Assembly (NCBI GenBank): GCA_045628045.1
Contig: JAZQOV010000011.1
Location: 4,912 to 68,911 of the forward strand
Direction of reading: 5' to 3'
DNA from: Bacilli bacterium
Lineage (GTDB): Bacteria; Bacillota_I; Bacilli_A; RFN20; CAG-826
Length of the DNA: 64,000 bases
A model generated the notes under the pieces. It made no database searches, was not told the origin of the DNA, and saw only the letters and a program-made list of their open reading frames with translations. The translations under genes were made by a program, and so were the position numbers. Below are positions 11,827 to 58,070 of the stretch, one piece after another. Within the stretch, counting starts at the first letter, position 1. Every line of letters begins with the position of its first letter.

Positions 11827-12711
11827 TTAATTTAATATTGATATATATTTATTCAATCTTTCCAATAAATATTTAGATATAAGTTTTTTCATTGGCTCAA
11901 GATTGTGCTTTAAATGAAATGCATCAAAAGCATCATAATAAGCACGTCTGTCGCTATATTTAATATCAATAGGTGGGAATCCTTGTTTCATTAATTCTAG
12001 ATTTAATAAGAGCCTTCCAGTTCTTCCGTTTCCATCAATAAAAGGGTGAATTGCTTCAAATTCAATATGGAATCTTGCTAATTTTGTAACAATATCTTCA
12101 TTAGATGTATTGTAGTTACAAATTAATTCATTCATTTTTGGTTCAATAGCATACGGTTGAACAGGTGTATGCTTTGAGCCCATTATTCTGACAGGGACCC
12201 TTCTGTAAACCCCTTTGTCTTGAGGTTGATCAGATAAAACCAAGGCATGTATTTGTTTAATTATACTTTCACCAATTTCAGTGTTTTCTTTCACTAAGTC
12301 GCATATAAAATCAAACGCTTCTTTGTGGCCAACAACTTCGAGATGATCTTTTAATGGTTTTTTGTCAATGGTAAGACCTCTTAGAACCATATCCGTTTCT
12401 CTTAGTGTTAATGTATTACCTTCGATGGCGTTGCTGTTATATGTGAACTCTACAACGAATTCCTCATTTAATCTTTTAATTTCGCCAGGCGTTAATGGCC
12501 TTTTAGAATCTAATATATTTTTAAGTTCTAAAATTTTGGATAAATAGTTTTCGTTGTTTTTGATTCTGCCATCAATTGGTTTTACGGCATCATCTGGTAT
12601 AAACCACGTTTTTCCATACAATTCTGCTCCATCAATTTTGCCTTCTGCACAAAGAATGCGAATCCTTCTGTCAGATATATTCCATTTTAGACTAGCTTCT
12701 TTAGTATTCAT
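11827..12711 (-). CDS. Fic family protein (class II, N-terminal HTH)
   Basis: Fic motif HPFIDGNGRTGR. Inhibitory helix motif SNAIEG ([S/T]xxxE[G/N]). N-terminal excisionase/MerR-like HTH (KEASLKWNISDRRIRILCAEGKI). Confidence 0.9.
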   Translation of the reverse strand: MNTKEASLKWNISDRRIRILCAEGKIDGAELYGKTWFIPDDAVKPIDGRIKNNENYLSKILELKNILDSKRPLTPGEIKRLNEEFVVEFTYNSNAIEGNTLTLRETDMVLRGLTIDKKPLKDHLEVVGHKEAFDFICDLVKENTEIGESIIKQIHALVLSDQPQDKGVYRRVPVRIMGSKHTPVQPYAIEPKMNELICNYNTSNEDIVTKLARFHIEFEAIHPFIDGNGRTGRLLLNLELMKQGFPPIDIKYSDRRAYYDAFDAFHLKHNLEPMKKLISKYLLERLNKYISILN

Positions 12712-17468: not shown

Positions 17469-17474
17469 ATTTTT

Positions 17475-17600
17475 ACCATAAAGAGTACGGCGAGGGACAA
17501 GCCCTATGACCCGTCAGCAACCTGCGTATAGCAAGGTGCTAAAGCTTGACTGATGGTTGTTTTTATTTTATAAGCCGTCAGTATCGATGGCTTTTAATTT
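17475..17600 (+). promoter_or_regulatory. SAM-I (S-box) riboswitch with terminator/antiterminator expression platform
   Basis: S-box core strings in order: ACCAT-AAAGAG..GAGGGAC..AGCCCTATGA..CCGTCAGCAACC..AAGGTGCTAAA..ATGGT. Terminator AAGCCGTC-agtatc-GATGGCTT followed by TTTAATTT (17572-17600). ACTGATGG (17549-17556) can instead pair with CCGTCAGT (17575-17582) as an antiterminator. Confidence 0.8.
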
Positions 17601-17625
17601 CTTTGTGGTAGATAAGGAGGCTTAT

Positions 17626-17880
17626 ATGCCACAGAAAACATTACAAAACGATCTTTACGTAGTCGTTATCTCTTCTAAAGAAGAAAGAGATGAACTTAAA
17701 GCATTATGCGTAAAACATAACATTCCTCTTCTTTATCCAGAGTTATTTAAGGAAGAGGAGATTCATCACTTATGGGGAATCTCTAAAAACGGTGTTGCTT
17801 TAGTGGGCACAATGATTGCAAGACATACACCTAAAGAGAATATATTTCATTCTGTTAAAGAACTGGAATGTATTCTCTAA
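17626..17880 (+). CDS. 84-aa protein of unknown function under SAM-riboswitch control
   Basis: ATG at 17626 preceded by AAGGAGG. The track start at 17557 lies inside the riboswitch terminator. No recognisable motif. Confidence 0.6.
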   Translation: MPQKTLQNDLYVVVISSKEERDELKALCVKHNIPLLYPELFKEEEIHHLWGISKNGVALVGTMIARHTPKENIFHSVKELECIL

Positions 17881-38488: not shown

Positions 38489-38556
38489 TATAAGAGGAAA
38501 AGGGTTACGATAGTTTGTCGTAACCCCTATCCCGTATATCGGAAAGGAATTAATAT

Positions 38557-41500: not shown

Positions 41501-42129
41501 TTGTAAGAGAAACCATTGCTTCAATTCCAGGTGCTATCCGTGATGCAGTTGATAATATTGGCGAAGTTGCAAGTAAGATCTTCAACTCATTATCTGATTT
41601 CTCAAAAGAAGCAATTACCACAGTTATTAATGTAGCTGGTGAAATCGCTGGTAATGTTGAAGATGCAGTTAAAGCAGGAGCTTCATTTATTGCTGATGCA
41701 GTTTCAGAAATTGCTGGTAATGTTGGCGACTTCATTGGAAGCGTTATTGAATTCTTTACAGGAAATAGAAGAGTTACAAGAGGTGCTCCAGTACCACAAG
41801 AATATCATGGTATTGAAGCTCTTGAAGAATTCGTTGCAAAGATTCAAGAAACATTAGCAAAAGCTGAAGATGTCAGCCTTGAAACTGTTGCTGTGCTTCT
41901 TGGTTATGTTACCAAAGTTATTCCGGCAGCAATTCAAGAAGTCTATACAATGGCTGTTAAAGGAGTTAATGAATTTGTCATTGCTTCTTATGAAAAACTT
42001 GCAAGCACTGTAATGAGCGAAGTTTGTGGCTTTGTTAGTTCAGTTGCTCCAGTTGCAATGAGCGTCTACTCAGACCTCTTAGCAGCATTATCAAGTGCAT
42101 TCATTGCATGGGCTCCATTATTCAAATAA
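38557..42129 (+). CDS. secreted SGNH/GDSL hydrolase fused to a long amphipathic-helix repeat region
   Basis: Signal peptide ..PAAYA/E. Block I YVSFGDSQTAGLG, block III DLGANDFG, block V-like HRSVEGH. The C-terminal ~600 aa are A/V/E/K-rich helical repeats. Confidence 0.75.
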   Translation: MKKLLQLLLALTMARPAAYAEKNKTFNYVSFGDSQTAGLGLHGCVPEWFYEDPSYYWTGTNPITGEKIKSGYFASGYYFQSEDSYPRLIEKALQREYKNVNFKPAAINAFRAETLKHLLYGEPMTHVYDQFMASDYISGSEAERHETYTINGKVYTYDKAKTSVSAEMISAVENADLITYDLGANDFGGFFMFGSFASYLEKYGIKVTDLYELIPAEYADIYYSTKGYILNMILESAGEAIPAELLSSLTSYVDMFVYSLVSFIVNFDATMERIYTLNPDVEVVVMSIQNIYKDAQAAMGDMVLPLGDIIGVLMTIANAYTSFFSPYANKYYYVDFGNEHVHDHIDELETWSSQRSFLNTSLTRYAELERLMGYGEIIDSFNVYSELLVEYTLKNEIAARENVIVGGRQLTFDEIVNSNSYALRSIKNRIQKELAVKTKLSYYAHARAFVCSFENKTMAMEATWGDPALDQISVIAKEYQDKFNPNLSEEANILNVINDLDKAITAEYSGAENADKQAALFAQLLGTGYAYAFMCHRSVEGHKECAERVLAAFHAKNNKRTTGKEGLLAALPSILFNFNKEKSYQTVAQVVAAITPFIVGGKINEGYIVSTLDELLAFIDNAEQYVTENEEAVVNVKTAIDSLVEQLGLTEQFAELLASNPLLKEFYENTEEMLIKTFGDARLALKIVEFVEILRNTFVGRDIAVAVSYAVGEVLKDLGIALAEIVKVAEGIGEKVHEAIMNTPSAISYAIKAIEEALGVVADKVMAALDYAGHVAGEVKDKAIEVSIEALHAIDKAFDWTGDQLKNLVEFIAKTFVKTVNATEEAAKNAAVATYNAVKYVAEEVGNSVDFVLGELSEIPGIIGEAIGDARAFTESVLSWAGKQVSKAFSAVVDVLDSIPGAVKEGAEFVASVIADLIGKAKDAIGDVVSFEKEVAEKIYNAGKSAVEYVVDEVSKAIPEVVEFVEDAAKFVSDGVKAYVNFVRETIASIPGAIRDAVDNIGEVASKIFNSLSDFSKEAITTVINVAGEIAGNVEDAVKAGASFIADAVSEIAGNVGDFIGSVIEFFTGNRRVTRGAPVPQEYHGIEALEEFVAKIQETLAKAEDVSLETVAVLLGYVTKVIPAAIQEVYTMAVKGVNEFVIASYEKLASTVMSEVCGFVSSVAPVAMSVYSDLLAALSSAFIAWAPLFK

Positions 42130-43504: not shown

Positions 43505-46321
43505 ATGAAAAAAAGTATCTCTGGAATCTTGTTAGCATCCGTTATGTCACTCGGCTTTTTAGCTGCACCTAGTACAGTTAAGGAATCAGGAAGTGCAGAG
43601 GAAGAAACAGCCATTACTTTACGCGCGAAGGCAAAAGAGGAAAGAAATTGTTTTATTTCCACTTTAGTTGAAAACATTACATCTGGGAAAACATATACCT
43701 TTAAAATTGATGGAAAGGATGTCGGTCGTTTTAGACTAACCAAATATAAAAAAGGCTGGGCAATTTCTAAGGGAACAATGTTTGTCGGCATTCAAAATAA
43801 GAGAATTGTCTACAAATTAACCCCAACTGAATGGAATTATGAAGATGGTGCATTTAGCCTCCCAGTAAAAAAAGTAAATTTTGGTTTTATCCATATTGAT
43901 ACTTCCGAACAACCAACCCAATACATTAAATCATTTAAAGTTGGTGCAAGATTAACCACCGAAAAAACTAACGTTGAAATTTATAACGTTATTCACACTG
44001 CGCACGCAATGACCGACTGGATTGATTGCGAAGATGGTGTACACCACAAGAAAGTTTGTTTAAATGAATGTGGTTACGAAGAAATTGGCGTTCATAACTT
44101 TGGTGAATTTAATAGTTCGCTTTATTGTCTTGATTGTGGCGCTATTAATCCAGGTGATCCTGAAGTTAATATTTCTGCTGCATTTAGAGAAGTAGAAACA
44201 GTCAATTATTTGAACATTCTTGTTGGAAAACCATTTAAATACACTACATATTATGCAGACGTTGATGTTTCATATAATAACGTTGGTATTTCCAAAGTTG
44301 AATTAAGAATGAATGAACAAGGCGACTTTGTCGAAGGATATAGTTGCTCACTAAATTCAAGAATCAAAACTCTTGAAGTTAGAGTTACCGATACACGCAA
44401 CAATGTTTACAACGAAGTATTCAAAAACCTCATTGTTTCATTTGATTTACAAGGTAAAGCATCAAAAATCGCTCCTATTACACATGTGGGCGAAGGCGAT
44501 AAAATCGCTGCTCCAGAAAGACCAGCTCCAACAAAAGATGAAATCTTTGCTGGCTGGTACAAAGAAGCAGAATGCGAAAATCCTTGGGATTTCGAAGTTG
44601 ATACTGTCGAAGATGATACAGTTTTATATGCTAAGTACGTTAAAGGAAATACCCTTTCAAGTGTTTTAAGCTTAAGCTATGACATCTTCCCATACGCAAC
44701 AAGCGCAACCCCAGTTCCAACAAAATCTTGGGTCAATGGCAAAGGCATTAGAGCATACATTTCAGGTGAAAACCTTGTTCTTTTAAACGGCACGAAGAAA
44801 TTAACACTTCCTCTTGCAACCGAAATGTCTATTAACGAAAACAATGAATACATCATTCAAGAAGGATCTGTTACTTGGAAATTCAACCTTCTTAGATACT
44901 TTGGATTTGATTATTTAGGATATTTTGAAATCGAAGGTTCAGAAGGCTTTGATGGTGCTTATGGTAAAACAAGTTCAAGACTTACAACAGTTATTGCAAA
45001 TGCAACAGGTATGGGTGGTTTCCCAGTTGGTGAAGCTCGTCCAGTAAATGCTTGGTCCAATGAAAAAGGAAATCGTTTATATGTAGATTCTGCTACTGGT
45101 GCAATTACAATTGAAAGCCCTAATAAAGAAGCAATTGTTCTTGAAAACAATGTTCCTGTTAATGTTTTTGATAACTATGTTATCAGAGATGAAGAAAATA
45201 ACATTAAGTTAATGCTTAACACTGAAAATGGTAAATTAACTTCTATTGAAGTTGTTACACTTGGATCATCTGAGGAAACTTCCGATTTCGGAACATTCAT
45301 TCCAGCATATGATTTAGGTAGCCTTTTAGGTACCACATTCCCAGTTACAGATATTAACAAAGCTCCACTTGATGCTTGGTTAAATGGTAATGGCGGAAAA
45401 GCATATATTGATGCAAATGGTAATTTTGCTATTGCAGATAACAACGGAATTGTTTACTCAGATTCCTTAGAAAAACCATACGTTTACAAAGATGGTTACT
45501 ATGTAAATGTCGGTGCTACTGAAGAAAATTATGTTAAAGTTGGTTATGTGGATGATGTTGTAACCTCAATTATTGTTAATGGTAGCTTTGGTAGCGGTGC
45601 AAATGGCACTTACACAGCTTTAGGAATTACTGTTTCATCTGTATTAGACACACTTAAAGTAATCTTCCCATATTTCAATGGAAATGGTGAAGTTTGGAGC
45701 AGTGCTTCTGGCGCAACAGTTTATTATGATGAAGATGCAAAAGCTATCGTTTTCAACACATTCTCACTTGCAGATACAACTGCATGTATTAGAGATGGTG
45801 AAAACTATGTTTGCACATATAAGAAAGGCTATGACAGCGCAAAGGTTACCTTTGTTATGGATAATGGAACATTAACATCAATTGTTGTTTCAGATGCTTC
45901 CCTTATGATTAGACGTGCAAATGGTGAATACGTTCCAACATCATTTATTGAAACTGTTAAAGATGTATTAGATTGCTCTAGTAGAGCATTCCCAGTTAGA
46001 TCAGCTGAAAATAATAACAATTCTTCAGCAATTCCAGAAGAAGCTTGGGAAAATGAAAATGGCATTAAGTGCTTCATTCAAAATGGCGAAGATACTCAAT
46101 CATTAGTCTTCTGTGAAGTCTTAGACGTCAAAGGCTACAAGATTGAAAAGAAAATCACTATCGACAATATTCTTGATAATATTGATCAAGCTGAAGGTGA
46201 TTATGTCTATCAATATTTCACATTTAAGATGACAAGAGGTGTCCTCTCAAGTATTGAAGTTAACTATCCACAAGGTAGCTTATATATTTCATTCAACGGT
46301 TCATATCAACCAGTTCTTTAA
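43505..46321 (+). CDS. secreted repeat protein with one Listeria-Bacteroides-type module
   Basis: AAGGAAGG RBS. Signal peptide. FAGWYKEAECENPWDFEVDTVEDDTVLYAKYV. A recurrent module P(V/L)..W.N..G...YI..... Confidence 0.65.
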   Translation: MKKSISGILLASVMSLGFLAAPSTVKESGSAEEETAITLRAKAKEERNCFISTLVENITSGKTYTFKIDGKDVGRFRLTKYKKGWAISKGTMFVGIQNKRIVYKLTPTEWNYEDGAFSLPVKKVNFGFIHIDTSEQPTQYIKSFKVGARLTTEKTNVEIYNVIHTAHAMTDWIDCEDGVHHKKVCLNECGYEEIGVHNFGEFNSSLYCLDCGAINPGDPEVNISAAFREVETVNYLNILVGKPFKYTTYYADVDVSYNNVGISKVELRMNEQGDFVEGYSCSLNSRIKTLEVRVTDTRNNVYNEVFKNLIVSFDLQGKASKIAPITHVGEGDKIAAPERPAPTKDEIFAGWYKEAECENPWDFEVDTVEDDTVLYAKYVKGNTLSSVLSLSYDIFPYATSATPVPTKSWVNGKGIRAYISGENLVLLNGTKKLTLPLATEMSINENNEYIIQEGSVTWKFNLLRYFGFDYLGYFEIEGSEGFDGAYGKTSSRLTTVIANATGMGGFPVGEARPVNAWSNEKGNRLYVDSATGAITIESPNKEAIVLENNVPVNVFDNYVIRDEENNIKLMLNTENGKLTSIEVVTLGSSEETSDFGTFIPAYDLGSLLGTTFPVTDINKAPLDAWLNGNGGKAYIDANGNFAIADNNGIVYSDSLEKPYVYKDGYYVNVGATEENYVKVGYVDDVVTSIIVNGSFGSGANGTYTALGITVSSVLDTLKVIFPYFNGNGEVWSSASGATVYYDEDAKAIVFNTFSLADTTACIRDGENYVCTYKKGYDSAKVTFVMDNGTLTSIVVSDASLMIRRANGEYVPTSFIETVKDVLDCSSRAFPVRSAENNNNSSAIPEEAWENENGIKCFIQNGEDTQSLVFCEVLDVKGYKIEKKITIDNILDNIDQAEGDYVYQYFTFKMTRGVLSSIEVNYPQGSLYISFNGSYQPVL

Positions 46322-46333
46322 TAAAAAATAACA

Positions 46334-48325
46334 ATGATTAACTTTGTTAAAGCGATAAAAATAATATGCGCTACTTTTAGCGCACTTACATCAATGTTTG
46401 GCATTAAGCCAAATCATGATAAAAAATACACCTATGTTTCTTTAGGTGATTCCATGTCTACTGGTTTTGGCTTTGATGACTATTATATTGACGACGAAAT
46501 CATTCCGGTTGAATCAATGGAACATTATAGACCAGAAGACGGTCATAAAAATGTTCATGGATTTTTAAGAGAGGCCAAAGAAGCTTATCCAACCTTAGTT
46601 CATTCTTATCTAAAAGATAAATATGGAGAAGAGAATGTTGAGCATATTCAATTAGCGGTTAACGTTACAAGAATTGATGATATTTATTATCATCTTAACA
46701 AAGACGCAAAAACTGACGAATTTTATCAAGCCCTTTTTGAAGATAATGGTCATGGTGATCAATGGAATGATGTTTTTGCTAATAGAGCAAGACAATTTGG
46801 TTACACTACAAATGAAGATAACAACGAAGCTGTAGTTGAAACATACGTAAATTCTATAAAGAAAGCCGATTTAATAACTTTAAATGCTGGATTTAATAAC
46901 TTTGGTTGTTTCTTTAGCGGAAAATTAGGCGACATTATTGAAGGTTTGCCTATTGCCGAAAGCTTTGGAGGTCACGACACTCTCCAAGGATTCTTAGATA
47001 GAACTGGTGTTGATCTTAATATTGGCGAAGTTTATGAGCAAATAAATGATATTTTTCATAGTTACACTGGACTTGATTTAACTTCGTATGAAAAGGTCAA
47101 AGTTGGTGGCTATAACATTAATGTTAAATATTTATTAGAACTCATTGTTACTGCCTTTGCTTCATATTGTTATTATATGAATGAGACCACTAAATTAATT
47201 TATGAATTAAATCCAGATGTTGAATTAGTGGTAATTGGATTATTTAATATCCTAAAGGGTATTAAACTTTCTGTTAATGATATAACAATTGATGTTGGTG
47301 AAATCACTAGCAAGATTTTTGAACTTGTTAATTTACATACAGCCTTAGGAACAGAATGTTCAAATAAATACAAATTCGTGGATTCTACAGATTTAAACGT
47401 TGGTATTCATGCTGAAGATATTGCTAATGGCACAATGGACGAAGAACAAGTAAGACGTGCATACATTGGCTTATACACAATGGCTAAAGAAGTTGGTGTT
47501 GATATTCCAACATTTACTATAGTAAAAGACCAAATTAATGGAGCCATGATTAATTTAGGCAATCTTGATTTTGATATCTCTGAATATATTGTTGATGAAG
47601 ATGAAAATCCATTAACTGATGCTGAGGCTTATGAGACTAAGTGGTTAGCATCATCCTTGGTGTTTGGTGAAGAGAATGCTAACAGCATTAATAGCGTGCT
47701 TAACGAGTATTATGGCGTCATTGATTCACTCTTTAATGTTCTAAAACGCGCCACAAACTCAAAAACAGTCACTTTAGAAGCTCTTTCTAGTTTAGGTGAA
47801 AGTATTTCTGTTGAACAAATTAATAATGGCGATTTTGATGGTTTAATTAATATTTATGTTCGCATTGTTATCAACAATGGAATGTGGAGTCATCCTAACG
47901 AAGAAGGGCACATTGAAATTTCAAAAGCAGTTATTGAAACACTTGAAAGTCATAAAACTGCAAAAGAAGTTGGAGAAGAAAGAATTAGAAACATTCTCAC
48001 TAACATTACTTCTGAAATAGATTCGCTAGTGGATGAGTTAAAAACTCAAATTGGAATTGAGACAAAAACACTTCTTGTAAAGTTTATTGGAGAAAAAGGT
48101 TATGAAAAAGTAATTGAAGTCTCCACAAAAGTTTATAAACTCATTAAAGAATGCATTAGAATTTTGAATTTTATAGATCAATTTTTATCTTTGATAAAAG
48201 AATACAATCCTATTCTTTATAAATTCATCGAAAATTTTAATGGTAATTTGCAAAAATATTTGGTTAATCCATTTATTAAGAAGATTTTATCTTCAAATCG
48301 TTTTTGCAATATTTTATTAGGATAA
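46334..48325 (+). CDS. SGNH/GDSL hydrolase family protein (third paralog)
   Basis: YVSLGDSMSTGFG, LNAGFNNFG, WSHPNEEGH. Confidence 0.75.
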   Translation: MINFVKAIKIICATFSALTSMFGIKPNHDKKYTYVSLGDSMSTGFGFDDYYIDDEIIPVESMEHYRPEDGHKNVHGFLREAKEAYPTLVHSYLKDKYGEENVEHIQLAVNVTRIDDIYYHLNKDAKTDEFYQALFEDNGHGDQWNDVFANRARQFGYTTNEDNNEAVVETYVNSIKKADLITLNAGFNNFGCFFSGKLGDIIEGLPIAESFGGHDTLQGFLDRTGVDLNIGEVYEQINDIFHSYTGLDLTSYEKVKVGGYNINVKYLLELIVTAFASYCYYMNETTKLIYELNPDVELVVIGLFNILKGIKLSVNDITIDVGEITSKIFELVNLHTALGTECSNKYKFVDSTDLNVGIHAEDIANGTMDEEQVRRAYIGLYTMAKEVGVDIPTFTIVKDQINGAMINLGNLDFDISEYIVDEDENPLTDAEAYETKWLASSLVFGEENANSINSVLNEYYGVIDSLFNVLKRATNSKTVTLEALSSLGESISVEQINNGDFDGLINIYVRIVINNGMWSHPNEEGHIEISKAVIETLESHKTAKEVGEERIRNILTNITSEIDSLVDELKTQIGIETKTLLVKFIGEKGYEKVIEVSTKVYKLIKECIRILNFIDQFLSLIKEYNPILYKFIENFNGNLQKYLVNPFIKKILSSNRFCNILLG

Positions 48326-49496: not shown

Positions 49497-49868
49497 CTAG
49501 ATCTTCTTAAAATGTTTCTTAGTCTTCTGTGCGTCTAATAATTCTTTTTCCAATTCTTCTTTCTTTGGGAGATGAGTTATATATTTAGTCACAAAGATTT
49601 GGTTCGTAATATTTCCTAGTGCATATTCTACCTGTATGTGATCATAGTCAGTACACATGACAATACCAACAGGGTCATTGTCGCTCGATTTATTAACGTT
49701 TTCCTTAAAATAATTTAGGTAAGTGTTAATTTGGCCCATTACATCTTTTTTAAATGGAGTGGCTTTTAGCTCAATGAGCACATAACATTTAAGATTTTCA
49801 TTATAGAACACTAAATCGACAAAATATTTCTTGTTATCAATTAAAAATTGATACTGATTATCATTGAA
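49497..49868 (-). pseudogene. DUF1016/YhcG-type PD-(D/E)XK nuclease, C-terminal fragment
   Basis: The frame reads FNDNQYQFLIDNKKYFVDLVFYNENLKCYVLIELKATPFKKDVMGQINTYLNYF.., the nuclease core (D..ELK). It continues the N-fragment at 51240-51887. Confidence 0.75.
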
Positions 49869-49995
49869 CTACCCCCACTTAAACATTCTATGTTTAGAAG
49901 ATGGGGGATTCCTACTCAAGAATCCTCGAGGATTCAGTGTCGATAGGCTAACCCCGTAGTTCCTACGGTTTGGTGGACTACCACTATTGTTTTTG
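49869..49995 (-). ncRNA. candidate TnpB omega/right-end RNA scaffold
   Basis: Unusually GC-rich stretch abutting the tnpB 3' end. Minus-strand hairpins CCGTAG-gaa-CTACGG, GAATCCTCGAGGATTC and CCCCCATCTTCTAAACAT-agaa-TGTTTAAGTGGGGG, ending at the element boundary. Confidence 0.55.
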
Positions 49996-51132
49996 AAGTA
50001 CTAATCTAATTCCTTCTTTTTTGATATTAATTGCTGCATTTATATCTCTATCATGCTTTCTACCACAGATAGGACAAATCCAATCTCTATCATTTAATTC
50101 AAGACTTTTGTTGATGTAACCACAATCACTGCAAGTTTTACTAGACGGAAAGTACCTATCTACTTTTATTAATTCCTTACCTAACCATCTTAATTTGTAA
50201 TCTAGAAAATTGACAAAAGTTCCATATGCTCGATCAGATAGATTTCTGCCCAACTTCATTTTTGTATCTTTTGATTGCATTGATTTCAAATCTAAATTTT
50301 CTACAAAAACATAATCGTATTTATTTGCAATTTTTCTGGATTCTTTATGCAAAAAATCTTTCCTAGAATTTGAAATATGAAGTTGAAGTTTTCTGACTTT
50401 TTGCCAGGATTTAATGGAGTTTTTGCTACCTTTTTGGCATTTTGATGCTCTTCTGGTTAATTTTGCAAGTTTCTCCATTTCGTTTTGAAGATACTTTGGC
50501 ATATCTGCGTGATTGCCATCGCTATCGACATAAAGATGTGACAAAGAAAAATCTAATCCTATTGAGTTGTTGATATCAAGTTTTTCAAGCTTGTCGAATA
50601 ACTCGACGTTTGGATTATCTTCTTCACCAGTCAATGTCACAAAATACATGTTTGCAACTCTAGAGATGGTGACTGTGGTAAAAGAGAATGATTCAGGCAT
50701 CAAACGAGATACTACAACTTTAACTCTGCCTAATTTAGGAATTTGGATTTCGTTACCATCAAGGCGGAGGTTATTGTTGATTTTCATAGTTGTGTAGCTA
50801 TGATCATTTCTTTTGGATTTAAATTTTGGAAAAGAACCTCTATGTTCAAAGAAATTAATATACGCAGCATGTAAATGAATAATGGCTTGTTGCAAAGCAA
50901 CACTATCAACTTCTTTTAAGTATTCATACCCTTCTTTGTAATCAGGAAGTATTTTGACTAAATCAAATTTTCTCAATTTAAAAGAAGGATCTTCCGCGTG
51001 CTTTTCGACACACATTTCAAGAAAATCATTATAGACTTGGCGAACGCATCCTAAAGTTTTCTCAATTTGTTGTTTTTGAGAAGAATTAGGATAGATTCGA
51101 AATTTATAAGCTTTCTTTATTTTCTTTTCCAT
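49984..51132 (-). CDS. tnpB: TnpB (OrfB_IS605) RNA-guided endonuclease
   Basis: RuvC-like IGLDFS, VFVENLDLKSM, RDINAAINI. Zn finger CSDCG...CPICG. N-terminal YKFRIYPN typical of OrfB. Confidence 0.9.
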   Translation of the reverse strand: MEKKIKKAYKFRIYPNSSQKQQIEKTLGCVRQVYNDFLEMCVEKHAEDPSFKLRKFDLVKILPDYKEGYEYLKEVDSVALQQAIIHLHAAYINFFEHRGSFPKFKSKRNDHSYTTMKINNNLRLDGNEIQIPKLGRVKVVVSRLMPESFSFTTVTISRVANMYFVTLTGEEDNPNVELFDKLEKLDINNSIGLDFSLSHLYVDSDGNHADMPKYLQNEMEKLAKLTRRASKCQKGSKNSIKSWQKVRKLQLHISNSRKDFLHKESRKIANKYDYVFVENLDLKSMQSKDTKMKLGRNLSDRAYGTFVNFLDYKLRWLGKELIKVDRYFPSSKTCSDCGYINKSLELNDRDWICPICGRKHDRDINAAINIKKEGIRLVLQKQ

Positions 51133-51239
51133 ACTTATATTATACTATCATTTCTTAAGAAATGATAGTGTTATTTCATTTTTTGCTTGCAATTCATCCC
51201 GCCGCTTTACGAGCTTCAAGCGTGGGTCTTCTTGCTAAA

Positions 51240-51887
51240 TTAGATAAATCTAAAACCTGAGCCTAGTTCTAAAAGGAATTCTTTCATGTGCGTTATAATA
51301 CCTTTTTCAATTTCTTTTTCCCTAAGGTTAAAACCTTTTTTGAAGAAATTAATTACAATCGGATCTACCATTACATCTTTTGGTTCAACAATCTGATTCC
51401 CAAGAGTGGATAATTGATTCTTTTTTGCCTCTATATTTTCTTTTGAGCCCAGTAAGATTCTTTGATAGTATCCCGATTGTATTTGTCTTTTTAAATCCCT
51501 GACAGACCATCTTTGTTTTGCACACTCTATTTCATAGAATTTTCTTTCTTCATCATTTTTTACATTTAGAAGACAAAAGTAATGCCCCCATGATAAAGTG
51601 GGAAACAGTGTTTCCCAATTTTTATATATAATATAAAAATTTAACATTGCTTTAATGTTTCTTCTTGAATACCCAGAGCCGAATTCTTTGGTTAGCTCAT
51701 TAGAAATTGAACTAATCGTGCGCTTTTTATAATCGCTTTTTCCTTTATTGGAGTCGATGTCTTTTTGAATTTGTTCCCCTATATACATATAAAGCTTAAG
51801 TAATTCAGTATTAACGTTATATATGATTTTTGCCTTCGTTGTTTCTATTGCATTTTTTAAATTTATTACTAGTTTATTTTCTTTCAT
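51240..51887 (-). pseudogene. DUF1016/YhcG-type nuclease, N-terminal fragment
   Basis: GGAGGAGG RBS. WSVRDLKRQIQSGYYQRIL and ..FLLELGSGFRFI* match the DUF1016 N-region layout. The stop is created at the IS junction. Confidence 0.75.
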
Positions 51888-51993: not shown

Positions 51994-52121
51994 TGTTTTA
52001 TGATTATTTTTAGTTTTATTAGATAGGTGAGATTTAATCAATAATGAATATACTTTTATAGAAAAAGTATTTTAAATTCATTATTATATTAGTATAAGTT
52101 TTTAAAAAGAGGCCTTTTATT

Positions 52122-53297
52122 ATGTATGACATTAATATAAAAGTTTGCGAAAATACTAAAGTTTTTATTTTTAATGGTCCTATCGACTCTAACGTTACAG
52201 ACGAAATTAAAAATTTCGTTGAATCGAATTCTTCTGGCTCTGATAGCGTTATTTTTGATATGGAAAAAGTTCCATACATGTCTAGTGCAGGCCTTAGAGT
52301 AGTGCTTAAGACTGCTAAATCAGTAAAAGAATTTGAAGTTATCAATGCTTCTGTAGAGTTATATAACATTTTCGACATGGTTGGGTTTACCCAAATGATC
52401 AAAATTAAGAAAGCCATGAGAGAAATTTCTATCGAAGGAAAAGAACTTATTGGAGAAGGTTATATGGGTAAAGTCTATAGACTTGATCCAGATACAATCA
52501 TCAAAGTATTTAAAAGAACCTCTGATACTTCTGATATCGAAAGAGAAATTTCTTTGGCAAAGAAAGCATTCATTCTTGGAGTTCCTACCGCAATACCTTT
52601 TGACATAGTCAAAGTTAAAGAAGGTGGCTACGGTTCTGTATTTGAACTTCTTAAATCATCTTCATTTAATAAATTATTTATTAATCATCCTGAGAAGGAA
52701 GATGAATACATTAAGATGTACGTGAACATCATTAAGACAATTACTTCTATTGAGGCTAAAAACCCTAGTGAGTTCCCTCGTAAGATAAATGATGCGTTAA
52801 CTTGGGTAAATGGTCTTAAGGAAGCAAAAGCCTATGATGAAGCTACACTTGCTAAACTTGAAAAATTAGTTAACACAATTCCTGAGAGTTCGCACTTAAT
52901 TCATGGTGATTGCCACATCAAAAATATTATGATGCAAGGTGATGAACCATTCCTTATTGATATGGACACTTTGGGTGTTGGGCACACCATATTTGAGTTA
53001 ACTGCAATATTCTTAACTTATATCGGATATCCTGATAAATTCCCAGGAAATGTCCAGGAATTCCTAGGTATTTCCGATGAAACCGCTAAGAAATTATTCT
53101 ATTCAACAATTGATTCTTTATACGCAGATAAATCAAAAGAAGAAAGAAACACAATTGTTGAGAAATGTGCTTTGTTTGGTTATATGTGGTTAACATACAA
53201 GACATTATTATTTGAACCAGAAAATAAAGTAAGACTTGATAACGCAAAAGAGAAAGTTATGAGTCTTATTGATAAATACGACACACTTAATTTTTAA
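52122..53297 (+). CDS. STAS domain fused to an APH/choline-kinase-like phosphotransferase domain
   Basis: AAGAGG RBS. STAS string YMSSAGLRVVL. Kinase strings GEGYMGKVYRL..IIKVFK, HGDCHIKNIMM, LIDMDTLG. Confidence 0.75.
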   Translation: MYDINIKVCENTKVFIFNGPIDSNVTDEIKNFVESNSSGSDSVIFDMEKVPYMSSAGLRVVLKTAKSVKEFEVINASVELYNIFDMVGFTQMIKIKKAMREISIEGKELIGEGYMGKVYRLDPDTIIKVFKRTSDTSDIEREISLAKKAFILGVPTAIPFDIVKVKEGGYGSVFELLKSSSFNKLFINHPEKEDEYIKMYVNIIKTITSIEAKNPSEFPRKINDALTWVNGLKEAKAYDEATLAKLEKLVNTIPESSHLIHGDCHIKNIMMQGDEPFLIDMDTLGVGHTIFELTAIFLTYIGYPDKFPGNVQEFLGISDETAKKLFYSTIDSLYADKSKEERNTIVEKCALFGYMWLTYKTLLFEPENKVRLDNAKEKVMSLIDKYDTLNF

Positions 53298-53315
53298 TGA
53301 AAGAAGGACACGAAA

Positions 53316-53612
53316 ATGGAAATAAACAAACTTGTAGAGAAAGACACTCTCACACTTGCTATTGAAGGAAGACTTGATACTTTAACATCTCCAACCCTTC
53401 AAGAAACAATTAATTCATCACTTGAAGGCATTGTTCATTTAGTAATTGATCTAAAGAAAGTTGTCTATATTTCGAGTGCCGGATTAAGAGTAATTTTAAG
53501 TGCACAAAAATTAATGAATACGAAAGGTGATATGGTTGTAAAAAATTGTTCAGCTGAAGTCCTTGAAGTTTTTGAAATGACAGGATTTACTGAGATTTTA
53601 ACGATAAAATAA
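53316..53612 (+). CDS. STAS-domain anti-sigma-factor antagonist (SpoIIAA/RsbV-like)
   Basis: 98 aa. LAIEGRLDT.T...L, YISSAGLRVIL, EVFEMTGF. Confidence 0.85.
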   Translation: MEINKLVEKDTLTLAIEGRLDTLTSPTLQETINSSLEGIVHLVIDLKKVVYISSAGLRVILSAQKLMNTKGDMVVKNCSAEVLEVFEMTGFTEILTIK

Positions 53613-53613
53613 T

Positions 53614-56484
53614 ATGGAATTCCTGGATATTTTTAAATTTATAATAGCTGCAATCATTCCAATTCTTTTAAGCGTTGGCTGTATTTATCTTGAGAAAACA
53701 AGAAGATTTTCTAAGTTAAACAAATACGTTAAAGCTTTAATATTTGGAGTTATTTTTGGCATCAGTTCAATTAGTGGAACTTTACTTGGTTTAAAACTAC
53801 CAAATGGCGCAATCATCAACGTGCGTGATGCCTCTCCTATTATATGTGGTCTTCTTTTTGGTGGACCATCAGGAATTTTGGCTGGCTTAATTGGCGGCGG
53901 CTTTAGAGCACTTACTCCTCTTTGGGAACCATCGACAGCTTACACAGTTGTTGCATGTTCTATTTCAACCGCAATGGCTGGTGTATTTACTGTGTTTGTT
54001 AGACATTTCATCTTTGATGATAAAAAAGGTACTTGGTACTATGGATTCTTCCTTGGCGTATTAGTTGAAGACTTCCATATGATGATGTCTGTGCTTACAC
54101 ACACAGAAGATATTGTTAAGGTTTATAACTCAGTTATAAAAGTATGTACAGTTCCAATGGTATTAGCAAATTCATTAGCGGTAATGATTGCAATTATTAT
54201 TGTTAATTTAATAAATCACGAGAAAATATTTGAAAAAGAAGTCAGAACTCATATTTCTACAAAGGTTCAGGTTTCTTTGATTCTTTCTCTTGTTGTTTCT
54301 TATGTTGCAACTGCGTTATTTACGAATATGTCTGTTAATAAAGTTGTTCAAACAAATATTAAAGGTCAATGTGAAAACGCTATAAGCGATGTTATTAATA
54401 ATGTTGATGACACAATCAACAATGTTATGAGTGACAAACTTGATGAAGTCGCAATAAAACTTCTTGATGAAGTAAAACCATTAGAAAAAGATAGGCTTTT
54501 ACGTAAAGAAGCATTAGTAAGTATTCTTAATGATTTCTCTGGTGAGATTTCTGAAATCAATATTGTTGGCACTGATGGTTTTGTTCATTATTCCACAGAT
54601 CAATACGATTTTATGGAAGACGGAAGTGGACCATTTAACATGGAAATTGGTGACCAATCAAGAGAATTTAATGTCTTACTTAAAGAAGGCGAAACAAACT
54701 ATTTTATCCAGGAATTCCGCGAGATTTCTGCGTATGATGGCGGAAAATCAATGAAATATGCTGGCTATAGATTTGATGCTGAAGACATTGAATCAGACTT
54801 CTGTTATTTCCAAATTGGTTTAGATGCTGCAAGGTATCACGAACTACTTCAAGACTATGTTGATGAATGTGCTAAATTTAGACACATTGGTGAAGAAGGA
54901 TTCGTTGTAGTTAGCGATGAAAATGGTGCAATTGTTTCAACAATCGTTGATTGTCCATTTACTGAAACAATTGATGTAAATAAGTTCCTAAACGATGGTT
55001 ACGATAAATATTACACTTACTCTAAATTTGTTGAAGGTTACTACATTGTTGCTTTTGCAGGCGCTGAAGAAAGTGATTTAGCATCCGTAATTTCATTCAC
55101 TGCAATTTCTCTTGCTGAAGTTTTTGTTTATTTGCTTTTATATTGCGTTTTATATATAGCAGTTAAACGTAGAATCGTTGATAAAATTAAAACTATAGGC
55201 TTAAGCCTAAATGAAATTTCTTCAGGAAACTTAGATGTTGTTGTTAATCAAAGAGACAGTTATGAATTTGATTCATTAAGTAACGACATTAATAAAACTG
55301 TTGGAACTCTTAAAGAGTTCATTGCGAAAGAAGCTAATAAGAATGCTGAAGAGTTAGCATTTGCTAAAAACATTCAATATTCTGTTCTTCCAACCGCTTT
55401 CCCAATGAATGATAGATTTGAAATTTATGCTTCTATGTCAACCGCCAAGACTGTTGGTGGTGACTTCTATGATTTCTATTTTATAGATAGAGAGCATGTA
55501 TTAATTGAAATCGCTGATGTTAGTGGAAAAGGTATTCCTGCCGCTATGTTCATGATGAGAGCAAAATCTGTTCTTAAATCACTTATAGAATCAGGTATTG
55601 GAATTGAAAATGCCTTTATTGAAGCAAATAGAAAACTTTGTCAAGGTAATGATACTCAAACATTTATTACGGTTTGGGGTGGAATTATCGATTTAACTAC
55701 AGGACATGTTGACTTTGTCAACGCTGGTCATAATCCTCCAATTATTTGTAGAGATGGCAAATTTGAGTACTTACATAGTAAACCAGGCTTTGTTTTAGCA
55801 GGTTTAGAAGGATTTAAATACGTTAAGCAAAGCTTTGACATTAAGCCAGGTGATATGATTTATCTTTATACTGATGGTGTTACTGAAGCTAATAACGAAA
55901 AACATGAACTTTATGGAGAAGAAAGACTTCTTAAAGCAATTGGAGATAAAACATATACTTCTAAATCTATTTGTGAAACTGTCTCAAAGAGTTTGAAGAA
56001 GTTTGTGAATGATGCAGAACAATCTGATGATATTACAATGCTCGCATTTAAATTCTATGATGTTGAGCTCGCTAATATTAAAGTTGTGGATGCAGACTTA
56101 AAGAATTTACCAGAAATCATAGATTATATCGATGATTTGCTTGATAAAAATAACGCCACATTATCTGCAAAATCACAAATCGATGTAGCAGTGGATGAGA
56201 TATTCTCAAATATCGCATTCTACGCTTATCCAGAAGGCCAAGTTGGTAAGGTCAAAGTTTCAGTCATTATGTCTAAAGACAATGAAGAAATGACCATTAT
56301 CTTTGAAGATAAAGGAAAAACATATAACCCACTTGAGAAAGAAGATCCAGATACTTCACTATCTCTAGAAGAGAAGTCTATTGGTGGACTAGGTATATTT
56401 ATTGTTAAAAAGACAATGGATTCATTAGAATACGATAACGTTAATGGTCATAACGTATTAACCCTCAGAAAGAAGATTCATTAG
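53614..56484 (+). CDS. membrane sensor (LytS-type 5TM) - extracytoplasmic domain - HAMP - PP2C/SpoIIE phosphatase - RsbW/SpoIIAB-like HATPase fusion
   Basis: N-terminal multi-TM region. HAMP-like KRRIVDKIKTIGLSLNEISSGNLDV. PP2C strings GGDFYDF, DVSGKGIPAAMFM, LYTDGVTEA, DDITMLAF. C-terminal VDEIFSNI.., GGLGIFIVKKTMD. Confidence 0.8.
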   Translation: MEFLDIFKFIIAAIIPILLSVGCIYLEKTRRFSKLNKYVKALIFGVIFGISSISGTLLGLKLPNGAIINVRDASPIICGLLFGGPSGILAGLIGGGFRALTPLWEPSTAYTVVACSISTAMAGVFTVFVRHFIFDDKKGTWYYGFFLGVLVEDFHMMMSVLTHTEDIVKVYNSVIKVCTVPMVLANSLAVMIAIIIVNLINHEKIFEKEVRTHISTKVQVSLILSLVVSYVATALFTNMSVNKVVQTNIKGQCENAISDVINNVDDTINNVMSDKLDEVAIKLLDEVKPLEKDRLLRKEALVSILNDFSGEISEINIVGTDGFVHYSTDQYDFMEDGSGPFNMEIGDQSREFNVLLKEGETNYFIQEFREISAYDGGKSMKYAGYRFDAEDIESDFCYFQIGLDAARYHELLQDYVDECAKFRHIGEEGFVVVSDENGAIVSTIVDCPFTETIDVNKFLNDGYDKYYTYSKFVEGYYIVAFAGAEESDLASVISFTAISLAEVFVYLLLYCVLYIAVKRRIVDKIKTIGLSLNEISSGNLDVVVNQRDSYEFDSLSNDINKTVGTLKEFIAKEANKNAEELAFAKNIQYSVLPTAFPMNDRFEIYASMSTAKTVGGDFYDFYFIDREHVLIEIADVSGKGIPAAMFMMRAKSVLKSLIESGIGIENAFIEANRKLCQGNDTQTFITVWGGIIDLTTGHVDFVNAGHNPPIICRDGKFEYLHSKPGFVLAGLEGFKYVKQSFDIKPGDMIYLYTDGVTEANNEKHELYGEERLLKAIGDKTYTSKSICETVSKSLKKFVNDAEQSDDITMLAFKFYDVELANIKVVDADLKNLPEIIDYIDDLLDKNNATLSAKSQIDVAVDEIFSNIAFYAYPEGQVGKVKVSVIMSKDNEEMTIIFEDKGKTYNPLEKEDPDTSLSLEEKSIGGLGIFIVKKTMDSLEYDNVNGHNVLTLRKKIH

Positions 56485-56493
56485 GTAGAAATT

Positions 56494-57324
56494 ATGTCAA
56501 TTGCAGATAAGATTTTTGTAGAAAATATGAAAGACATTCTTAAGAATGGTTTTTCAGATGAAAAGTTAGAAGTTAGACCTCATTGGGAAGATGGAACTCC
56601 TGCTCACACGATTAAAAAGTTCTGTATTGTGAATAGATACAATCTTCAAGAGGAGCTTCCAATTCTCACAATAAGAAAAACCGCTTTTAAGTCATGTCTT
56701 GATGAACTTCTTTGGATTTGGCAAAAGAAATCAAACAATATTCATGATTTAAAATCACATATTTGGGATTCTTGGGCTGATGAAAATGGTTCGATAGGCA
56801 AAGCCTATGGTTATCAACTTGGAGTCAAACATCATTATCCTGAAGGAGACATGGATCAAGTTGATAGAGTTCTTTATGATTTAAAACATAATCCTCAATC
56901 AAGAAGAATCTTAACAAATATCTATAATTTCCAAGATCTTCATGAAATGAATCTTTATCCATGCGCTTACTCAATGACATTTAATGTCACTGGTGACACA
57001 TTAAATGGAATTTTAAATCAACGTTCTAACGATATGTTAACAGCGAATAACTGGAATGTTTTGCAATATTCATTATTGTTAATAATGTTCGCGCAAGTTT
57101 CAGGTTTAAAACCAGGAACTCTAGTTCATGTAATCGCTGATGCTCATATTTATGACCGCCATGTTGAGCTTGTTAAAAAGGTAATTGAAAAACCTCAACA
57201 TAAAGCTCCTAAATTATGGGTTAATCCAGAGATCAAAAACTTCTATGATTTTAAAGTTGAAGACTTCAAACTTATTGATTATGAATATGAAACTTTAGAA
57301 GAAAAAATACCGGTGGCAATTTAG
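56494..57324 (+). CDS. thyA: thymidylate synthase (Bacillus ThyA type)
   Basis: LLWIWQKKSN, DQVD..L..LK.NP.SRR, LYPCAYSMTFNV (catalytic Cys), RSNDM, PKLWVNPE.KNFYDF..EDFKLIDY. Closely parallels B. subtilis ThyA. Confidence 0.9.
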   Translation: MSIADKIFVENMKDILKNGFSDEKLEVRPHWEDGTPAHTIKKFCIVNRYNLQEELPILTIRKTAFKSCLDELLWIWQKKSNNIHDLKSHIWDSWADENGSIGKAYGYQLGVKHHYPEGDMDQVDRVLYDLKHNPQSRRILTNIYNFQDLHEMNLYPCAYSMTFNVTGDTLNGILNQRSNDMLTANNWNVLQYSLLLIMFAQVSGLKPGTLVHVIADAHIYDRHVELVKKVIEKPQHKAPKLWVNPEIKNFYDFKVEDFKLIDYEYETLEEKIPVAI

Positions 57325-57325
57325 T

Positions 57326-57820
57326 ATGATTATTTCAATTTTAAGTGTTGACAAAAACTATGGAATTGGGAAAAATAATTCCCTTCTTTTCCATCTAAAA
57401 AAAGACATGGAATTCTTCAGAAAGACAACTGAAGGTCATATGGTTTTTATGGGTGAAAATACTTTACTTTCTTTCCCTGGAAGTAAGCCACTTAAAAATA
57501 GAATCAATGTAGTTCTTAGCAAAGACAAAACTCACAATTACGAAGGTTGTAAGAATGTTCACAATTTCCGAAAATTCACGAGAATTCTCAGGAAAAATGG
57601 CAGAAAACACGATGTTTTTGTAATTGGTGGAGCGTCTATTTATATGCAAACACTTCCTATAGTGGATATGGTATTATTAACCAAAGTTGATGCTGATGGA
57701 CACGCTGATGTCTTCTTTGATAATTTAGATAAAAATCCATCTTTTGAATGTGTTGATCAAGGCACACCAATTATGGATGGAGATTACAAAATTAGATTCA
57801 CAACTTATATTCGAAAATAA
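57326..57820 (+). CDS. folA: dihydrofolate reductase
   Basis: ISILSVDKNYGIGKNNSLLFHLKKDMEFFRKTT, VIGGASIY. Immediately follows thyA. Confidence 0.9.
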   Translation: MIISILSVDKNYGIGKNNSLLFHLKKDMEFFRKTTEGHMVFMGENTLLSFPGSKPLKNRINVVLSKDKTHNYEGCKNVHNFRKFTRILRKNGRKHDVFVIGGASIYMQTLPIVDMVLLTKVDADGHADVFFDNLDKNPSFECVDQGTPIMDGDYKIRFTTYIRK

Positions 57821-57868: not shown

Positions 57869-57929
57869 ATCAGGCGAGATGGGTCTGACAAAAGGAAAGA
57901 GATTGGCTGCTACCAATCTCTTTTTCATA
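57869..57929 (+). ncRNA. candidate sRNA module A (tandem copy)
   Basis: TTGCAA (57835-57840), N18, TAATAT. The transcript starts AUCAGGCG... Perfect 11-bp terminator stem AAAGAGATTGG/CCAATCTCTTT (57896-57923) followed by TTTC. Confidence 0.45.
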
Positions 57930-58011: not shown

Positions 58012-58070
58012 ATCAGGCGTGGGATCTGACAAAAGGAAAGAGATTGGTTGCATCCAATCTCTTTTTCATA
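58012..58070 (+). ncRNA. candidate sRNA module B (putative antitoxin RNA, convergent with the 39-aa ORF)
   Basis: TTGAAA (57978-57983), N16, TATAAT (58000-58005). Same stem as module A with a different loop (58037-58064) followed by TTTTC. On the minus strand the same hairpin is followed by CCTTTTG. Confidence 0.45.

Follow-up and report, generated by a model that had tools for sequence, protein, structure and literature searches.

Partner switching is the textbook means of sigma-factor control, and its direct action on enzymes is only beginning to be reported. In Bacillus, the final target of the RsbU/RsbV/RsbW and SpoIIE/SpoIIAA/SpoIIAB systems is sigma-B or sigma-F, whose gene lies in the operon of the system. 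The Mycobacterium tuberculosis protein Rv1364c (PDB 3ke6) both adds phosphate to its own STAS domain and removes it, and in vitro binding to SigF has been reported for it (PMC7693655). In Vibrio fischeri, an RsbW-type kinase and a PP2C phosphatase are joined in one protein, SypE, which controls the STAS protein SypA via a conserved serine (PMC8256260). In Anabaena sp. PCC 7120, the STAS-glycosyltransferase All4160, which reportedly belongs to a largely cyanobacterial family, is inhibited by the RsbW-like protein Alr3423, and HenR, a PP2C phosphatase, activates it (PMC13555669). A sequence-only reading of the locus described here had assumed a sigma factor at the end of established partner switches, a view that SypE/SypA (PMC8256260) and All4160/HenR/Alr3423 (PMC13555669) have made outdated; it also overstated the uniqueness of the locus, as the fusion of a PP2C to a kinase was already known from Rv1364c and SypE, and this kind of control over an enzyme with a fused STAS had been shown for All4160 (2026). 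We consider it likely, on balance, that the locus encodes a sigma-independent phospho-switch of the partner-switching type with an enzyme as its regulated target.

Organization of the locus

Three open reading frames, P1 (52122..53297), P2 (53316..53612) and P3 (53614..56484), lie on the + strand at 52122-56484 of the window, the whole 64-kb stretch of DNA that was analysed, exactly where they had been placed before. The gap between P1 and P2 is 18 nt and that between P2 and P3 is 1 nt, and Shine-Dalgarno-like sequences precede P1 (AGAGG) and P2 (AAGGA). A candidate promoter, TAGAAA-17-TATTAT (52059..52087, + strand), was found upstream of P1 by consensus match only, at 9 of 12 positions; since such matches are not commoner here than in shuffled sequence, it is weak evidence. 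Nine nucleotides past P3 begins thyA (56494-57324), followed after 1 nt by folA (57326-57820), and no terminator-like site was found between the three-gene set and thyA/folA. Given the short gaps and the absent terminator-like site, the five genes (P1-P2-P3-thyA-folA) may form one transcript in this lineage, although comparison of related loci showed that thyA and folA are not conserved partners of the module.

The STAS-kinase fusion and the free STAS protein

P1 is a 391-aa protein, the proposed output enzyme, in which Pfam places a STAS domain at residues 4-99 (52131..52418, + strand; E 2e-12) and an APH domain at residues 110-300 (E 4e-10; 40.3 bits against a cut-off of 23.2). The whole APH/choline-kinase-fold phosphotransferase domain takes up residues 101-391 (52422..53294, + strand), and the AF2 model of the protein has a pLDDT of 94.2 and a pTM of 0.82. 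The motifs HGDCHIKN, IDMD and YMSSAGLR, quoted earlier for this protein, are all present. The predicted phosphosite is S55 (codon 52284-52286), the second serine of YMSSAGLR, which aligns to Ser58 of SpoIIAA.

The catalytic set of the APH-fold domain is complete, with a bilobal fold, HxDxxxxN, IDxD, the beta3 Lys and the alphaC Glu, and K128, E142, H261, D263, N268 and D280 are invariant in the family; the kinase domain has the full set of catalytic motifs in 91 sequences. Its G-loop has the form GxGxxGxV, as in ePKs, and the Lys-Glu pair is also there; such a loop is unusual within the APH/ChoK family. The SrkA model NF008738 matches P1 with an E of 1e-5 and a score of 24.9 against a cut-off of 194, and TIGR02172 scores 92.5 against a cut-off of 228. 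With NCBIfam scores far below the cut-offs, P1 belongs to none of the APH(3'), APH(6), SrkA, CotS or TIGR02172 classes, and its kinase domain is only 10-17% identical to any characterised family member or resistance enzyme. In structure comparison the closest folds to this domain are small-molecule kinases throughout, and in the model the activation-loop segment is absent between IDMD and the following helix. The nearest folds, together with coupling or fusion of the kinase to HD_4, PHP, a nucleotidyltransferase head and an NRPS module among relatives, hint that the substrate is a small molecule, possibly a nucleotide-like one. The G-loop and the SrkA-like HGDCHxxN also fit a protein substrate, which counts against this leaning.

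P2, on the + strand, is a 98-aa stand-alone STAS protein of the anti-sigma-antagonist type (Pfam STAS, E 1e-16; TIGR00377, 1e-19, above its cut-off) and is 33% identical to the STAS domain of P1. The phosphorylatable site claimed for it was found as YISSAGLR, the predicted phosphosite being S54 (codon 53475-53477), again the second serine and aligned to SpoIIAA Ser58. The SS[AS]GL motif is retained in 48 of 49 stand-alone STAS proteins of related loci, and the phosphosite motif in 78 of 79 fused STAS domains.

The membrane sensor

P3 (+ strand) is a 956-aa membrane protein whose architecture is common to about 65 full-length homologues and whose AF2 model has a pLDDT of 85.6. Its 5TMR-LYT membrane domain (residues 36-198, 53719..54207, + strand) was identified by Pfam (5TM-5TMR_LYT, E 2e-22) and by its hydrophobic segments, and is present in 55 of 55 homologues. 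An extracytoplasmic dCache-like domain (about residues 237-496, 54322..55101, + strand) lies between the last two TM helices. The HAMP linker (residues 518-567, 55165..55314, + strand) is weakly matched in the window protein, where its E of 0.01 falls short of the Pfam cut-off, and the assignment is backed by matches in 34 of 55 homologues (best E 3e-6) and by the helices of the model. The cytoplasmic part consists of a PP2C phosphatase domain of the SpoIIE/RsbU type (residues 626-814, 55489..56055, + strand; Pfam E 6e-48), in which the metal-binding Asp motifs of PP2C/PPM enzymes are present, and an RsbW/SpoIIAB-type GHKL Ser-kinase domain (residues 826-953, 56089..56472, + strand; HATPase_c_2, E 2e-20), in which the N, G1 and G2 boxes are all present. 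The chain thus runs sensor-PP2C-GHKL kinase and ends with the HATPase at residue 956, the STAS domains being located in P1 and P2. Pfam bore out the other proposed domains (STAS and APH in P1, STAS in P2, and 5TMR-LYT, SpoIIE/PP2C and HATPase_c_2 in P3). The closest solved structures are RsbV for the STAS domains, RsbW for the kinase domain and Rv1364c for the PP2C-GHKL tandem.

Distribution and gene neighbourhood

The STAS-APH fusion has more than 100 full-length homologues, and species-representative genomes contain at least 580 loci for it, most of them in Firmicutes of the gut and rumen. In the 44 loci with at least 4 kb on each side, the fusion has as neighbours HATPase_c_2 (35 loci), PP2C (31) and free STAS (28) genes, all three together in 22, and it stands alone in 4 (about 9%). 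All partner genes (146/146) are co-directional, in about 30 gene orders, and linkage to RsbW-type kinase, PP2C and STAS genes persists across 80 species-level loci despite the shuffled order. The relatives L081 (82% identity) and L084 (59%) carry this trio in unchanged order between different flanks, which supports the description of the module as self-contained. The description of the STAS-kinase as its output is supported as well: some loci (L015, L024, L027, L047 and L053) encode a PP2C-HATPase and a STAS-APH without a free STAS, and single-chain proteins exist in the order HATPase_c_2-STAS-APH (P0133, on 4 contigs, with a free STAS gene after it) and STAS-APH-HATPase_c_2 (P0145, P0243).

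The RsbW-type kinase is not invariably adjacent to the fusion, as seen at the lone-fusion loci and at loci such as L073 (Coprococcus catus), where HD and a free STAS accompany the fusion but HATPase and PP2C are missing nearby, and this counts against the switch model, as do stand-alone kinase versions without nearby switch genes (P0151). In a further relative (P0212) the kinase is fused to an NRPS A-T-C module. A gene for a RelA/SpoT-type HD hydrolase (HD_4) is translationally coupled to the fusion in 36 of the 80 loci, and sometimes fused to it; the 64-kb window has no HD gene, and it is the relatives alone that give the nucleotide hint.

No Sigma70 Pfam domain was found in any ORF of at least 100 aa of the window, nor any sigma-like ORF by phmmer, the 64 kb being the part of the genome visible to this search. 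Across the 80 loci there was a single weak sigma-like match, 7 kb off, and the earlier statement that no sigma factor is encoded is supported for the window and these loci.

Proposed mechanism and alternative explanations

Since the module recurs, with no sigma factor, in hundreds of bacteria of the gut and rumen, the switch probably controls an enzyme rather than transcription, a logic for which All4160 (PMC13555669) and Rv1364c (PMC7693655) offer precedent. In the scheme that we infer for who phosphorylates whom, for the direction of regulation and for signal and substrate, P3 would sit in the membrane, where its 5TMR-LYT and dCache-like parts may sense an envelope or extracellular cue that is relayed via the HAMP linker and sets the balance between the two cytoplasmic activities. 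The RsbW-type domain would bind unphosphorylated STAS domains and phosphorylate the conserved serine (S55 of P1, S54 of P2), and the PP2C domain would strip the phosphate off again. That the fused STAS of P1 is a direct partner of the RsbW-type kinase is supported by the loci without a free STAS, by the single-chain fusions and by the kept phosphosite motif. P1 would be the output, its STAS domain abutting the N-lobe of a kinase with complete catalytic motifs, without a linker, and we infer that phosphorylation gates this kinase. P2 would compete as a second STAS, buffering the switch or setting its threshold (the "partner switch" proper). Once active, the P1 kinase would phosphorylate its substrate, most likely at a small-molecule hydroxyl; this may be a nucleotide-like compound, degraded by the HD_4 hydrolase so often coupled in related loci.

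A classical partner switch is a different reading, in which the RsbW-type domain of P3 sequesters at the membrane a sigma factor encoded elsewhere, P2 and perhaps the STAS of P1 act as antagonists, and the APH domain is an accessory. The closeness of the STAS and HATPase domains to SpoIIAA/RsbV and RsbW/SpoIIAB agrees with it, as do the 64 kb to which the visible genome amounts and the reported binding of SigF in vitro by Rv1364c, the nearest solved PP2C-GHKL relative (PMC7693655). We regard it as unlikely, since no sigma gene adjoins the module in the window, only the one weak match at 7 kb turned up among 80 loci of many families, and the constant partner is the kinase fusion, in some proteins fused to HATPase_c_2. 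Slightly less probable still is that the fusion is an input, an APH-fold Ser/Thr protein kinase that phosphorylates a STAS domain (its own or P2) or P3 as a second phospho-input. The absent activation-loop segment and the small-molecule kinases as nearest structures argue against this, stand-alone and NRPS-fused members lack a STAS partner, and coupling or fusion to HD_4, PHP and nucleotidyltransferase domains would be hard to explain for a STAS kinase, even though several points are in its favour: the G-loop GxGxxGxV is ePK-like, the catalytic loop resembles that of SrkA (NF008738, 1e-5) and the Lys-Glu pair is present; some loci (L058, L073) have the fusion and a free STAS without HATPase or PP2C nearby; and M. 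tuberculosis PknD is reported to phosphorylate a STAS protein (PMC1847690).

The envelope location of the sensor, the NRPS-fused relative P0212 and a fold family dominated by APH, capreomycin/viomycin, macrolide and amicoumacin kinases might also suggest a regulated xenobiotic or antibiotic kinase, with the sensor detecting a drug or peptide and turning on an APH-type inactivating or self-resistance enzyme. We think this very improbable, as identity to any resistance enzyme is so low and the APH(3') and APH(6) scores so far below their cut-offs, the family is widespread among gut anaerobes, in which it is chromosomal and vertically conserved, and drug inactivation does not account for an RSH-type HD hydrolase as coupled partner. 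A bolder reading, which extends the preferred enzyme switch and which we hold to be rather doubtful, is that the STAS-APH kinase and the RelA/SpoT-type HD_4 coupled or fused to it in many relatives form a synthase/hydrolase pair for a new phosphorylated small-molecule signal gated by the membrane partner switch, the version in the window being hydrolase-less; a ribose-phosphorylated nucleotide is one candidate for such a signal.

What is new in the enzyme-switch reading is a kinase as the proposed regulated output domain of a partner switch, in a module that recurs across hundreds of Firmicutes species from gut and rumen, a group whose signalling is poorly understood. An uncharacterised kinase family is thereby defined, with an experimental handle of one serine, one sensor and one partner, and the RelA/SpoT-type hydrolase coupling is a testable lead to a possible new phospho-metabolite or nucleotide signal.

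Comparison with known systems

The module shares its three core activities and the phosphoserine motif of its STAS domains with RsbU/V/W and SpoIIE/AA/AB; it differs from them in the fusion of kinase and phosphatase and in having no sigma factor nearby (in the 64-kb window). Like Rv1364c, P3 joins sensor, PP2C and GHKL kinase in a single chain. Rv1364c is cytoplasmic and SigF-linked, with a PAS sensor and the STAS at the C-terminus of the same chain, whereas P3 lies in the membrane, combines 5TMR-LYT, dCache and HAMP parts, and has its STAS partners in two other proteins, of which one also includes a kinase. The 5TMR-LYT membrane domain is shared with LytS-type sensors, but the output of P3 is PP2C and HATPase_c_2 rather than the LytS-type His_kinase (PF06580) and HATPase_c. 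As in SypE/SypA, a sigma factor is not the known target; SypE is soluble, ordered kinase-REC-PP2C and controlled by phosphorelay, and SypA is STAS-only, in contrast to the membrane-bound P3. The kinase domain of P1 shares with the APH/choline-kinase/MTR-kinase family (PF01636) the bilobal fold, the HxDxxxxN loop, the IDxD metal site and the helical C-terminal substrate lobe; to our knowledge, no member of this family, TIGR02172 (a Fibrobacter paralogous family) included, has been described with an N-terminal STAS. Like the All4160 module, the locus pairs an N-terminal STAS fused to an enzyme with a cognate RsbW-type Ser kinase and a SpoIIE/PP2C phosphatase; in the All4160 module these two act on the serine of the STAS and the output is enzyme activity rather than a sigma factor, as we propose for the locus from its sequence. 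The enzyme is a bacterial sugar transferase in All4160 and an APH-fold kinase in P1; kinase and phosphatase are separate proteins in the former, the phosphatase with a receiver domain, and are united here in one membrane sensor, to which a free STAS absent from the All4160 module is added; and the P1 family is found in gut and rumen Firmicutes, whereas that of All4160 is, as reported, largely cyanobacterial.

Results

Three co-directional, tightly spaced ORFs were found on the forward strand at exactly the interval where the sequence-only reading had placed them, with gaps of 18 nt between the first and second and 1 nt between the second and third. The first, P1 (52122-53297, 391 aa), matched the Pfam STAS (2e-12) and APH (4e-10) families; the second, P2 (53316-53612, 98 aa), matched STAS (1e-16) and scored above the NCBIfam cut-off for the anti-sigma-antagonist superfamily; and the third, P3 (53614-56484, 956 aa), matched 5TMR-LYT (2e-22), SpoIIE/PP2C (6e-48) and HATPase_c_2 (2e-20). 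The domains previously read from the sequence were thereby recovered except for HAMP, which was marginal in P3 (Pfam E 0.01) and present in 34 of 55 P3 homologues. The topology of P3 comprises about seven N-terminal transmembrane segments, a 260-residue loop and a last transmembrane segment followed by the cytoplasmic domains, which carry every metal-binding motif of a PP2C as well as the N, G1 and G2 boxes of a GHKL kinase; the P3 C-terminus matched the NCBIfam RsbW and SpoIIAB models, both below threshold. NCBI holds a protein 100% identical to P3 (P0271). The STAS domains of P1 and P2 share 33% identity, and Shine-Dalgarno-like sequences precede both genes. Matches in a promoter scan were no commoner than in shuffled sequence, and an Rfam search of the window gave nothing within the module. 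A 127-aa antisense ORF (52034-52417, -) overlapping the start of P1 is without support and is probably spurious.

In the kinase half of P1, residues G111xG113, K128, E142, H261-G262-D263-x-H265-x-x-N268 and D280 were invariant in 91 family members. As these include every catalytic residue, the possibility that P1 is a pseudokinase was set aside, and the APH domain is predicted to be a competent phosphotransferase. The Gly loop (GxGxxGxV) is protein-kinase-like and the catalytic loop SrkA-like, features with which a protein substrate would be compatible. The STAS domain and the kinase N-lobe are contiguous, with no linker between them.

The STAS-APH fusion constitutes a family and is no accident. 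Among the matches listed were more than 100 full-length homologues, some 390 aa in length, and at least 580 STAS-APH loci were found in species-representative genomes; the carriers are mostly MAGs of Erysipelotrichaceae, Oscillospiraceae, Acutalibacteraceae, other Clostridia and Bacilli, along with Coprococcus catus and some Atopobiaceae. A search with just the kinase domain retrieved 278 clusters at E <= 1e-30 from a library clustered at 50% identity, and the STAS-APH architecture was present in 120 of the best 150 of these. Stand-alone relatives of the kinase occur as well, and the surroundings of one, P0151, offered no switch genes. In two Clostridia MAGs (L045:8001-9170 and L072:8001-9170) the gene is broken into two ORFs, which could reflect a frameshift, a pseudogene or an assembly error.

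Gene linkage was examined in 80 fetched loci, whose ORFs were searched with the domains of the window proteins as queries; neighbours were counted in the 44 where the fusion has 4 kb or more of sequence on each side. An RsbW-type HATPase_c_2 gene lay beside the fusion in 35 of these 44, a PP2C in 31 and a free STAS in 28; all three accompanied it in 22, and the fusion stood alone in four. Every partner gene (146/146) was co-directional with the fusion, in some 30 gene orders, and the PP2C and HATPase domains formed one chain in some loci and separate genes in others. The flanks change as well among closer relatives: in L081, a locus with 82% identity, the three genes follow EIIC_2 in the window order and precede thyA-folA, and in L084 (59% identity) the same order is found between GDPD and aldolase/FGGY genes. 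Linkage that is kept despite shuffled order and changed flanks is a classic signature of a functional module, and chance juxtaposition of these genes was therefore ruled out.

The fused STAS itself appears to be a direct partner of the switch. Several loci (L015, L024, L027, L047 and L053) have PP2C-HATPase and STAS-APH with no free STAS, the HATPase_c_2 domain occurs in a single polypeptide with the fusion, either at its N-terminus (P0133) or at its C-terminus (P0145, P0243), and the SS[AVS]GL phosphosite motif is retained by 78 of the 79 STAS domains in fusions and by 48 of the 49 free ones. P0133 was found on four contigs with a free STAS gene directly downstream, a minimal two-gene set whose single RsbW-type domain could be contested by the free and the fused STAS.

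A further partner came from neighbour clustering. In 36 of the 80 loci the ORF directly 5' of the fusion encodes an HD_4 protein about 190 aa long (for example L018:7425-7985, L022:4584-5159 and L093-L096). The protein is of the RelA/SpoT hydrolase type and small-alarmone-hydrolase-like (Pfam 6e-21 and 7e-22), with HD, ED, ETENK and DKLSNMRS motifs. Its gene is spaced from the fusion by a median of about -1 nt, with 33 of the 36 pairs no further apart than about 35 nt, which indicates translational coupling; in P0217 and P0232 HD_4 and APH share one chain. Elsewhere in the kinase family, the fusion partner is a PHP phosphoesterase, a PolyA_pol nucleotidyltransferase head, HD-CE or an NRPS A-T-C module. 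The Rosetta-stone architectures seen were HATPase_c_2-STAS-APH, STAS-APH-HATPase_c_2, HD_4-APH, HD-CE-STAS-APH, STAS-APH-PHP, STAS-APH-PolyA_pol head and NRPS(A-T-C)-APH, and the proteins that represent them are P0133, P0145, P0243, P0217, P0232, P0169, P0180, P0196 and P0212. When the search was reversed, starting from the HD subfamily in metagenome contigs, the nearest HD relatives were mostly followed by STAS-APH (L093-L096, L099, L108), L100 carried an HD-APH fusion with PP2C-HATPase downstream, and remoter full-length HD paralogues stood alone; the link is therefore enriched and not exclusive. The HD gene is absent from the window and from its close relatives.

Just upstream of the module, a TnpB/IS605 OrfB gene (49984-51132) splits a YhcG/DUF1016 nuclease gene into halves at 51240-51887 and 49497-49811 (whole block 49497-51887, -). 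This block appears to be a recent insertion, since no such genes lie between EIIC_2 and STAS-APH in the 82% identical L081. On the 3' side of P3, thyA and folA (56494-57820, +) follow with gaps of 9 nt and 1 nt and no terminator-like site between, so that the module and these two genes may share a transcript; L081 has the same arrangement and L084 does not, which makes it lineage-specific. Two near-identical 28-nt hairpins (AAAGAGATTGG...CCAATCTCTTT; 57896-57923 and 58037-58064), 141 nt apart, lie just 3' of folA and may be terminators or a small repeat element. The sole Rfam match in the window, far from the module, was a SAM riboswitch (17473-17559, +; RF00162, 51.8 bits) directly 5' of a 107-aa ORF (17557-17880) for which Pfam gave no match. 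Two Fic/DOC-family genes and an HTH/YafQ-type toxin pair were also seen (11827-12711, -; 18156-19214, +; 19725-20605, +). Very large predicted surface proteins of 938-1462 aa are encoded in a row (23891-27946, 34100-42129, 43505-48325), some with Flg_new (Listeria-Bacteroides) repeats and two with no Pfam match; taken with the DUF285 and Big_2 proteins encoded at other positions of the window, they fit a low-GC host-associated Bacillota genome.

Discussion

It was proposed from the sequence that this is a partner-switching module that lacks a sigma factor and has the STAS-kinase fusion as its likely output. The observation of the module is confirmed, and sequence and comparative evidence, as far as they go, support its interpretation. 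As had been claimed, no sigma factor is encoded nearby: Pfam found no Sigma70 domain in window ORFs of at least 100 aa, and phmmer with RpoE, SigB, SigF and SigW probes found no sigma-like ORF in the window and, in the 80 loci, one weak match in one locus, 7 kb from the fusion. Pfam thus backed up the probes for those window ORFs, and the ORFs of the 80 loci were surveyed with the probes. Unbiased clustering of all neighbouring ORFs gave no further recurrent regulator. A sigma factor might still be encoded at a distant site in the source genome. A role in defence was also considered and dropped, as the PADLOC models gave no match to P1, P2, P3 or the HD protein.

The analysis establishes which domains and motifs are present, their linkage, the fusion proteins and the lack of a sigma factor nearby; in the mechanism proposed below, every phosphotransfer step, the direction of control, the signal and the substrate are inferred. 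The 5TMR-LYT and dCache parts of P3 would sense an envelope or extracellular cue, relayed via HAMP, that sets the balance between the RsbW-type kinase and the PP2C of P3. This balance would determine the phosphorylation state of P1 S55 and P2 S54, and the P1 STAS, through that state or through capture by the RsbW-type domain, would then control the adjoining kinase, with P2 acting as a competing STAS, or buffer. The HD association raises the hypothesis of a small-molecule, possibly nucleotide-like substrate that would be made by the kinase and removed by the hydrolase. This connection with an RSH-type hydrolase, seen in relatives, is potentially of more interest than the module itself.

The searchable literature contained no account of a STAS-APH fusion and nowhere connected APH-type kinases with small alarmone hydrolases; a 2025 PP2C classification paper makes no mention of these domains, and the source databases record no names for proteins of the family. 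Two of the original premises do need revision. The fusion of kinase and phosphatase was already known from M. tuberculosis Rv1364c, which has PP2C and a GHKL kinase on one chain (PMC7693655) and is structurally the closest match for the tandem in P3, and from Vibrio fischeri SypE, which combines the same two domains and controls the STAS-only SypA (PMC8256260). Likewise outdated, given SypE/SypA and Anabaena All4160, is the view that a sigma factor is the end point of established partner switches. All4160, a STAS-glycosyltransferase, was shown experimentally in 2026 to have the RsbW-like Alr3423 as its inhibitor and the PP2C HenR as its activator, and according to its authors STAS-sugar-transferase proteins are largely confined to cyanobacteria (PMC13555669). 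All4160 is thus a STAS-enzyme fusion under switch control with the same logic as that proposed for P1, its enzyme being a glycosyltransferase; what is new here is a kinase as the likely enzyme output of a partner-switching-like module, widespread in gut and rumen Firmicutes.
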